This document shows, in pieces, positions 13,145-63,700 of a stretch of 64,000 bases of DNA. Below the pieces are notes generated by a model that saw only the letters and a list, made by a program, of their open reading frames with translations, was not told the DNA's origin and searched no databases. This DNA is from Escherichia phage vB_EcoM_Kelasse. Numbering within the stretch: position 1 is the stretch's first letter; the number at the start of each line of letters is the position of its first letter. The stretch lies in sequence record MW749001.1, one strand, 5' to 3'. The position numbers and the translations under genes were made by a program.

Positions 13145-13309
13145 TTACTCTTCTTTTTCTTTAGATTCCTCTTTTTTCTTTTTAGGAATCTGTTCAGGGC
13201 CTTTATTTACTACAGCGCCTGACGTTGTTCCAGTAGAGATATTTTCAGGATTACCACCTGAATCTCCAGCGACCATATCTTCTTTGATAAATTCTTTATA
13301 TGTTTTCAT
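13145..13309 (-). CDS. small protein with capsid-targeting-like N-terminus (54 aa, 61.1 position)
   Basis: Hand-translated MKTYKEFIKEDMVAGDSGG...; GAGG Shine-Dalgarno; Lys/Glu-rich tail. Confidence 0.5.
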   Translation of the reverse strand: MKTYKEFIKEDMVAGDSGGNPENISTGTTSGAVVNKGPEQIPKKKKEESKEKEE

Positions 13310-57427: not shown

Positions 57428-57901
57428 TTATTTGAATGATTTGACGTACTGAATAGAACCTTTACTATTCACGAAAGCGATTTTACCATTTTTATTATAC
57501 ATGGTAGCAGTACGCTGATAGCCATAAGTTTGTTTACCAGATTGATAACCAACTAATGCGAAATTATCTTCACCCATTTTATTCTGTTTAGCGCGAATAC
57601 GTTCATGACCGTGTGCCATAAGAACCTTAGCATCACCAGTTGAAATTGATCTACGAGTTTTTTCATCTTCAACTGTATTAACAAAGTCGTCAAATGAATC
57701 AAATTTAGCATGGGATTTATTATACAGTTTTCCATCTACTGCATAATTATATCCCTGTACATCCATCTCAACTTCTGTACCATCATCCAATACAGCAGTG
57801 ATTTTTTGACCTTTTTTAAATTTCAAAAGATCAGTAAAAGATTCAGCAATAATTTGAGAATTAATAGCTGCTTCAGTGATAAATTCTTGATATGTTTTCA
57901 T
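57428..57901 (-). CDS. internal-protein-like protein with capsid targeting sequence (157 aa)
   Basis: N-terminus MKTYQEFITEA matches the T4 internal-protein targeting motif. Confidence 0.6.
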   Translation of the reverse strand: MKTYQEFITEAAINSQIIAESFTDLLKFKKGQKITAVLDDGTEVEMDVQGYNYAVDGKLYNKSHAKFDSFDDFVNTVEDEKTRRSISTGDAKVLMAHGHERIRAKQNKMGEDNFALVGYQSGKQTYGYQRTATMYNKNGKIAFVNSKGSIQYVKSFK

Positions 57902-58385: not shown

Positions 58386-59188
<803 letters not shown>

Positions 59189-62880: not shown

Positions 62881-63019
62881 TTTAGAGAATTCTAGGGAGG
62901 GAAGGGGCAATTAAAGGATAGGATAATATATTATAAAGGGTAGAAACTAAATGATGCCTAGAGAGGTCCAGAAAGGCCTAGATGCCAAAAAGCCCTATCA
63001 TTTAGATAGGGATTTAAAA

Positions 63020-63583
63020 TTATTTATCTAGTTTAGTTATTATAGCTTCTGCGGCAGCTTTTAGCTTAGATGCGGTGTTAATACGATTTTTAATTTCAGT
63101 ATACGCATCGCCAAGAACATCAAGGCTATCAGAATAAACACTTACACTATTGCGTTCGCTATTTGAAATAGAACCTTTAGTTTTACGTTCAAAATCGGTG
63201 TACACGTCTTGAAGATCACGGGCTGCCTTCTTTGCATCATCCAATGCATCAAGAGCTTTATTCAAAGCATTAACATATTTTTTAGTGTCGAACATATTCT
63301 TAGAAATTTTAACAGGTGCACGTTCAGGAGTAGCTAAGGCAGATTTAGGAACCTGAGCGCCAGATGCCAATTTCTTAGAAATTTTGAAAAATGCTTTATT
63401 GAAACTATTTTCTTGACTCATCGTAAAAGAACTATTATCAATGTTATACATTTCAATAGCTTTAGCTTTCCACTTAAGAAAATCGCCACGGTCTTTTGGG
63501 TCCAAGTGGAAGAATACTTTAGTAAGATCTGCTTCAGATGGTAATTTTGCTGCTTCGGTTAAAAATTCGGCGTAGGTTTTCAT
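63020..63583 (-). CDS. internal-protein-like protein with capsid targeting sequence (187 aa)
   Basis: N-terminus MKTYAEFLTEA; hairpin downstream. Confidence 0.6.
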   Translation of the reverse strand: MKTYAEFLTEAAKLPSEADLTKVFFHLDPKDRGDFLKWKAKAIEMYNIDNSSFTMSQENSFNKAFFKISKKLASGAQVPKSALATPERAPVKISKNMFDTKKYVNALNKALDALDDAKKAARDLQDVYTDFERKTKGSISNSERNSVSVYSDSLDVLGDAYTEIKNRINTASKLKAAAEAIITKLDK

Positions 63584-63660
63584 TTAAAATCCTTGAAATA
63601 ATTTATTGGTTATTAATTATTTATCACGTTGTTATATGTAACAGCATTCTCCGAGCGATT

Positions 63661-63700
63661 CAAACTAAAAAGCCCCAACCTTTCTGTCGGGGCTAAGAAT
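63661..63700 (-). terminator. rho-independent terminator downstream of 63702 ORF
   Basis: AGCCCC / GGGGCU stem with 12-nt loop followed by U5. Confidence 0.5.

Follow-up and report, generated by a model that had tools for sequence, protein, structure and literature searches.

A candidate internal-protein gene with a capsid targeting sequence between rnaC and e.8 in a Tequatrovirus

A 187-codon gene on the minus strand of Escherichia phage vB_EcoM_Kelasse (MW749001.1), a Tequatrovirus, probably encodes an internal protein (IP) of the T-even type that has so far gone without a name: a protein packaged in the capsid, processed by gp21 and injected into the host, most plausibly as an anti-defence factor. 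The class itself is known; what appears to be new, judging from the sequence, is an unannotated candidate member, a third locus for such genes and a distinctive cassette architecture. Coordinates are those of the window, the whole stretch of 64,000 nucleotides that was analysed, and are collected in Table 1. We refer to the 187-codon gene below as the candidate gene.

Table 1. Features of the candidate gene, its surroundings and the other leader-bearing genes of the window.
Feature	Coordinates	Strand	Basis and remarks
Predicted internal-protein precursor CDS (candidate gene)	63020..63583	minus	ORF listing; 187 aa, ATG start, begins MKTYAEFLTEAAKLPSE; leader match
Capsid targeting sequence (CTS), codons 1-10, MKTYAEFLTE	63554..63583	minus	ends in gp21 motif L-x-E
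Shine-Dalgarno AAGGA	63590..63594	minus	direct sequence reading; 6 nt 5' of ATG
Late-promoter-like box GATAAATA	63618..63625	minus	7/8 match to T4 late promoter TATAAATA
Intrinsic terminator of the upstream CTS gene, repeat copy 2	63661..63697	minus	stem-loop 63694..63671 and T run
Intrinsic terminator of the candidate gene, repeat copy 3; T4-type flank follows	62983..63011	minus	stem-loop 63011..62993 and T run
CTS gene A ('family A'), 3' part, cut by window end	63702..>64000	minus	PHROG match, relatives' sequences
Ip5-like internal head protein gene beside e; S after cleavage site	58386..58667	minus	93 aa; phrog_3499, leader scan
Ip4 internal virion protein gene 3' of denV; leader MKTYQEFITE/A	57428..57901	minus	157 aa; DUF7412, phrog_3155, RB14 annotation; leader match
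61.1-like ORF; leader MKTYKEFIKE/D, I-K-E motif	13145..13309	minus	54 aa; homologous to T4-type 61.1; leader match

A first-pass annotation of the DNA had described this open reading frame as IP-like, leaving its strand unstated, and as a capsid-targeting-sequence protein; both descriptions hold. The reading frame stands in the ORF listing and is preceded by a Shine-Dalgarno sequence. Comparison of three alleles (the window, Shigella phage vB_SsoM_113 and RB14) gave 16-18 nucleotide differences and dN/dS values of 0.03-0.11. Such values show strong purifying selection on a gene that is clearly functional and, together with hundreds of intact homologues, rule out a chance ORF. Its leader has Tyr4, Phe7, Leu8 and Glu10, the complete set of CTS determinants defined by mutagenesis (PMC9026906); in IPIII, amber suppressors at residues 4 and 7 affected targeting, and those at residues 8 and 10 affected processing (PMC9026906). 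The gp21 prohead protease recognizes L/I-x-E (PMC9026906), and a motif scan showed that Leu8-Thr9-Glu10/Ala11 is the sole [LI]xE in the 187-residue protein, with the predicted cut after Glu10 and before a small residue, Ala11. The leader thus reads MKTYAEFLTE/A, compared with MKTYQEFIAE/A in T4 IPII and IPIII. The computed mature form has 177 residues, a mass of 19.7 kDa and a pI of 9.4, near the 20.4 kDa and pI 9.65 of T4 IPIII*, to which it is unrelated in sequence.

Database comparisons placed the protein in phrog_2280, a group of 'unknown function' (E=1e-53). Pfam contained no family for it, returning only sub-threshold helical matches to cytochrome b562 and ALIX, and a PDB sequence search gave no match. 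In every database record examined the gene is called 'hypothetical'; this includes RB14, where it is listed as 'RB14ncORF136c', though the same annotation names Ip4, Ip5 and ipI.

We scanned the entire 64-kb window in six frames for the leader, using the expression MK[TS][YF].[EQDK]F[LIVMT].[ES]. There were four matches (the candidate gene, the Ip5-like gene, the Ip4 gene and the 61.1-like ORF), and since all four lie on the coding strand and each stands at the very start of an ORF, the leader is not a chance match. The leader codons differ synonymously among the CTS genes of the window. The gene next to e, previously taken to be IPII-like, turned out to be Ip5-like instead, its product being 48% identical to the Ip5 proteins of T2 and RB32. 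All three genes that had been named as a set of injected proteins do match the leader, but that tally missed gene A, which lies directly upstream of the candidate gene. The suggestion that this phage carries a distinct set of injected proteins is supported at the sequence level: Ip4, the Ip5-like protein, the candidate and gene A are found here, against IPII and IPIII in T4. The candidate gene is not peculiar to this phage, however, as its family is common to several Tevenvirinae genera. As side observations, denV lies here between two IP genes, the T4 order being e-ipIII-ipII-denV, and conserved counterparts of the 61.1-like ORF occur in 1,396 phage records, among them T4-like phages of Aeromonas and Acinetobacter; the weakest of these matches falls within gene 23 of the Acinetobacter phage 133.

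The order along the minus strand is: the tRNA cluster with rnaC and rnaD (beyond the end of the window), gene A, the candidate gene, e.8, e.7, e.6 and so on to nudE, e, the Ip5-like gene, denV and Ip4. As had been stated before, the candidate gene is not where T4 ipIII sits. Its slot, between rnaC/tRNA-Arg and e.8, lies outside both classical IP loci (ipI; ipII/ipIII), and in T4 this interval is 284 bp long, with no ORF and one terminator (TTAGCCCCGACCGAAAGGTTGGGGCTTTTT). In vB_SsoM_113, a terminator element of ~40 nt occurs three times: before gene A, between gene A and the candidate gene, and after the candidate gene. When the genomes are aligned, the left flank of T4 continues from terminator copy 1 and its right flank from copy 3. 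Gene A and the candidate gene are therefore terminator-bounded cassettes, with indel endpoints that map inside the terminator repeat, and the rnaC-e.8 locus holds zero, one or two cassettes across Tequatroviruses. The candidate gene, with its predicted promoter and its terminator, makes up one self-contained cassette. RB14, for instance, has the candidate gene and no gene A.

A tblastn search found the candidate gene intact in 164 phage records at >=85% amino acid identity, of which 163 are at >=95%. These 164 compare with ~580 records that share the flanks of the locus, and about two thirds of Tequatrovirus records are without the gene; the number of empty-site genomes is approximate, as BLAST pieces up to 590 nt apart were joined. 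The junction between gene A and the candidate gene occurs in ~127 records, and gene A is commoner on its own. The classical IP loci are flanked by an early promoter of ~70 bp with an overlapping inverted repeat (Repoila 1994, as related in PMC2839356 and PMC12373910). This GTTTAC... element, which T4 ipI, ipII and ipIII do have, is absent upstream of the candidate gene.

Gene A is complete in relatives (L001:1846-2319), where it encodes 157 residues beginning MKSYAQFLNE/AVLNE/A and has a perfect TATAAATA late promoter upstream and a terminator of its own. It is present in 511 phage records, where it is always 'hypothetical'; among phages of Klebsiella and Yersinia its C-terminal domain varies. 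Gene A resembles the candidate gene in its CTS leader, predicted late promoter and terminator-bounded arrangement, and in its predicted layout, with a helical domain at either end and a PA/K-rich linker between them; both fall in PHROG 2280. They differ in that hhalign aligns 12 leader columns alone, and BLASTP likewise the leader alone. Tandem duplication, by which the two genes would be paralogues, was considered on these grounds and left unproven as far as the bodies are concerned, and two possible chimeric intermediates, P0021 and P0022, gave no significant match.

Conserved signals suggest when the candidate gene is expressed. The ATAAATA core of its upstream box begins 41 nt before the ATG. 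This heptamer occurs only seven times on the minus strand of the 64 kb; the chance of finding one at this position is ~0.002. The same scan picks up a pair of perfect TATAAATA boxes a short way 5' of e, where T4 has known late promoters; their recovery serves as an internal positive control. In five orthologues checked outside Tequatrovirus and RB69, one of them on an unassigned metagenomic contig, a (T/G/A)ATAAATA box lies 33-48 nt 5' of the start codon. The box is a perfect TATAAATA (8/8) in Karamvirus KMB19 and the Mosigvirus-like JQD51, and (G/A)ATAAATA elsewhere. We infer from these conserved signals that the candidate gene may be transcribed late, from its own gp55-type promoter.

To find more distant relatives, we combined a word-indexed search with an exhaustive phmmer search of 1.84 billion representative proteins. 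Together these returned just close copies, fragments, one true distant homologue (P0029) and P0027, a protein of 2,561 residues with a weak match spread over several stretches (phmmer E=8.6e-7). P0029 is 30% identical from end to end and has the leader MITFNEFLNE; with P0029 as a stepping stone, tblastn reached 350 phage records. Homologues occupy the same slot, from the tRNA cluster to the e.x block, in Karamvirus KMB19, Mosigvirus-like JQD51, Winklervirus CHI14, Kagamiyamavirus EcS1, Jiaodavirus 15882-6 and RB69. In Tegunavirus fHe-Yen9-01 the locus tag of the homologue comes next after that of a family-A gene.

The bodies of the divergent homologues are only 21-26% identical to the candidate protein. 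Every homologue that was read nevertheless keeps M-x-x-[YF]-x-E-F-[LI]-x-E, with Phe7 invariant and Tyr or Phe at position 4, and in several of them another [LI]xE follows shortly after. In the divergent homologues, identity to the window protein is 58% over the leader and 21% over the body. A leader conserved amid diverged bodies, together with the synonymous codon differences, indicates that conservation acts on the peptide and not on the DNA. Several observations accompany the more remote members of the family. On the T4-like Logan contig that encodes P0029 (L004:2092-2526), a gene 30.3-like ORF comes before P0029 and the next gene has ART-PolyVal (ADP-ribosyltransferase) and DUF3990 domains, a neighbourhood that differs from those of cultured phages. 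The Jiaodavirus orthologue has 194 residues in 15882-6 (L011:1495-2079) but is truncated to 58 residues in Klebsiella phage ValerieMcCarty01 (VMC01; L010:2501-2677).

RB69, a Mosigvirus, offers a view of how this gene moves. Its sequence (L009:2880-4103) is 94% identical at the nucleotide level to window positions 63697-62482, which cover the candidate gene and e.8, but the adjacent e.6/e.5 genes are only ~70% identical. The 94% patch starts at the upstream repeated terminator. Other Mosigvirus-like phages have in this slot an allele that is 23% identical. The patch represents a localized exchange between genera. The RB69 copy of the candidate gene is frameshifted into ORF148c and ORF149c. Rapid divergence and transfer between genera fit a gene engaged in an arms race.

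Metagenomic sequences also contain in-frame chimeras of the candidate gene. In P0011 the middle of the gene is joined to the C-terminal part of NudE, which implies an e.8-e.2 deletion at an 'AAR' microhomology; in P0028 the N-terminus of e.8 is joined to the last ~28 residues of the candidate protein; and P0010 has a foreign N-terminus on the C-terminal half of the candidate protein. We regard these chimeras as signs of frequent illegitimate recombination around the gene.

An AlphaFold2 model of the candidate protein, built from a diverse alignment of 19 sequences, has a pLDDT of 79. Residues ~17-73 form a small N-terminal domain of helices, followed by a linker that is disordered and rich in Pro, Ala and Lys; residues 101-186 form a hairpin or bundle of helices at the C-terminus, modelled with confidence (pLDDT ~90). 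Comparison of this all-helical model with known folds gave no match. The modelled hairpin is generic and unlike IPI*, and the predicted structure thus lends no support to a role as a nuclease inhibitor.

The life history that we propose for the protein has four steps. Conserved signals suggest that the gene would be transcribed late from the gp55-type promoter GATAAATA, with terminators insulating it on both sides. The match to the defined CTS suggests that MKTYAEFLTE would then dock the precursor on the prohead's gp22 scaffolding core. There, gp21 is predicted to cut after Glu10 (L-T-E/A), exposing the neo-N-terminus AAKLPSEADLTK and leaving a basic, all-helical protein of 177 residues that would stay with the DNA in the head. 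Finally, the protein would be ejected with the DNA and would act ahead of all phage gene expression; if IPI*, Ip2, Ip3 and Bas37_0260 are a guide, its most likely role would be to neutralize a host defence directed against the incoming modified DNA.

An alternative that also assumes packaging by the CTS is a protein with no specific host target, structural or DNA-associated, contributing to charge neutralization or to scaffold and head assembly as has been proposed for IPIII. The basic, lysine-rich character of the 20-kDa mature protein, its Pro/Ala/Lys-rich linker and its helical hairpin are features generic to DNA- or scaffold-associated proteins. Loss of IPIII halves the rate of head assembly. 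Mutants in IPIII and IP0 have head-assembly defects, and IP lysines touch DNA (PMC9026906, PMC3012670). The gene keeps its synteny in six or more Tevenvirinae genera, which is not so typical of hypervariable IPs and would fit a structural role as well. Against this, the absence of the gene from T4 and from about two thirds of Tequatrovirus records means that it is not needed for assembly. Its body falls to 21-26% identity where IPIII keeps 62-90% across comparable genera, and the acquisition by RB69 of the Tequatrovirus allele in place of the Mosigvirus type suits a gene for host interaction better. A structural role seems unlikely to us. The related idea that the protein substitutes for IPIII, the two being mutually exclusive, was rejected, as a genuine ipIII coexists with the candidate gene in Shfl2, G3F10, EcNP1, PhAPEC2 and phiE142.

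The protein might instead stay unpackaged, a cytoplasmic product of late infection whose leader is an inherited or recombination-derived 5' module. Our literature search for virion proteomics of phages with an intact candidate gene found none, and so no detection of the protein in virions; the gene sits outside the classical IP loci; and the 61.1-like ORF, no known IP, begins MKTYKEFIKE, so that the motif alone is not proof of packaging. Mass spectrometry of virions of the Jiaodavirus ValerieMcCarty04 gave no peptides from the slot while IPII- and IPIII-like proteins were detected well, but the orthologue is truncated to 58 residues in the sister phage VMC01, so this result says little about packaging either way. 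(The same purified virions gave about eight confident peptide matches to an e.5-like hypothetical protein, WKM80657.) Weighing against a cytoplasmic protein are the conservation of the leader at the protein level where flanking DNA and codons have diverged, and a putative late promoter whose timing matches prohead assembly. Moreover, a 10-residue CTS packages unrelated proteins, so a late protein with such a leader should be packaged. We think this explanation improbable, more so than a structural role.

That the gene is T4 IPIII (or IPII or IPI) merely relocated, or a chance ORF, can be regarded as refuted. Length and pI do resemble those of IPIII. The alignment with T4 IPI, IPII and IPIII that the first-pass annotation had called for was run, however, and BLASTP matched IPIII over residues 1-12 only, IPII weakly over residues 1-32 and IPI not at all. 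Orthology to any of the three was rejected, as nothing beyond the leader aligns and the PHROG is a different one. A genuine ipIII stands beside the candidate gene in Shfl2, PhAPEC2 and others, and the low dN/dS and hundreds of intact homologues speak against a chance ORF. We favor an injected internal protein, probably one with an anti-defence role. Points that count against it are the late box in this phage, at 7/8 and not 8/8, a position at neither classical IP locus and the missing early-promoter element of T4 ipI, ipII and ipIII.

More tentatively, and with less confidence than we place in the protein's class, we suggest that rnaC-e.8 may be a third, unrecognized IP locus of the Tevenvirinae: one that ancestrally held one or two late CTS cassettes, lost them in T4, and exchanged them between genera at repeated terminators, with the candidate gene coding for an injected protein that inhibits some defence not targeted by Ip1-3. 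If this is so, the loss in T4 explains why the locus has gone unstudied, and the protein would be a ready probe for a new pair of defence and counter-defence. In every record examined, the candidate gene and its divergent homologues in the same slot, which together make up ~350 phage records, are 'hypothetical', as is gene A; all were overlooked because the model phage T4 lacks them. IPs are the only T-even anti-defence factors already there when the DNA enters the cell, and since 2025 all four with known targets are specific inhibitors of Type IV restriction enzymes. Recognition of the CTS in such genes adds candidate determinants of host range in therapeutic Tequatroviruses and gives concrete genes to set against orphan defence systems. 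Scanning for the leader is a cheap route to candidates for injected proteins, and the terminator-bounded cassettes and the RB69 transfer illustrate how such genes move.

Compared with the T-even IPs as a class, the candidate shares an N-terminal CTS with a gp21 L/I-x-E site and a small basic mature protein. It is likewise non-essential and polymorphic in presence and absence (absent in T4, present in 164 records), and as in that class the bodies are mutually unrelated and the surrounding region is plastic and bounded by repeated regulatory elements. The polymorphism and loci of the class are described in Repoila 1994 and Comeau et al. 2007, as cited in PMC2839356 and PMC12373910. The candidate differs in that its similarity to these proteins extends over the leader only, in its position at a third locus (rnaC to e.8) and not at ipI or ipII/ipIII, and in having repeated intrinsic terminators and a late-type promoter in place of the early promoter with inverted repeat. 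Its orthologues also keep the same slot across genera, and it has never been annotated as an IP in the records examined.

Packaging by the leader has a firm precedent, as the CTS alone suffices for packaging foreign proteins (PMC3012670, PMC9026906) and the first 10 residues of IPIII package GFP and beta-galactosidase (PMC9026906). Ip1, Ip2 and Ip3 of T4 block Type IV restriction enzymes of the GmrSD type, a different one in each case (PMC12373910), and a fourth CTS protein with a known target, Bas37_0260, inhibits McrBC (bioRxiv 10.1101/2025.11.20.689424). With IPI*, Ip2, Ip3 and Bas37_0260 the candidate shares the same leader and a fast-evolving accessory character and, by analogy, may share the delivery logic of a pre-made protein co-injected with glucosyl-hmC DNA. 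IPI* differs in its compact fold of two sheets and helix (PMC3012670), compared with the all-helical two-domain fold predicted here. As ip4-ip10 had no reproducible targets among GmrSD variants (Silas et al., PMC12373910), it is not a rule that a CTS protein is a Type IV restriction enzyme inhibitor.

The arrangement of the locus recalls the PeSL cassettes (Arbiol et al. 2010, PMC2839356), in which a single accessory ORF likewise lies between repeated stem-loop regulatory elements and a single copy of the element marks the empty site in a related phage, implying recombination between the repeats. The elements themselves differ, with a sigma-70 early promoter in the PeSL cassettes and, at the candidate gene, a Rho-independent terminator followed by a late promoter of the TATAAATA type.
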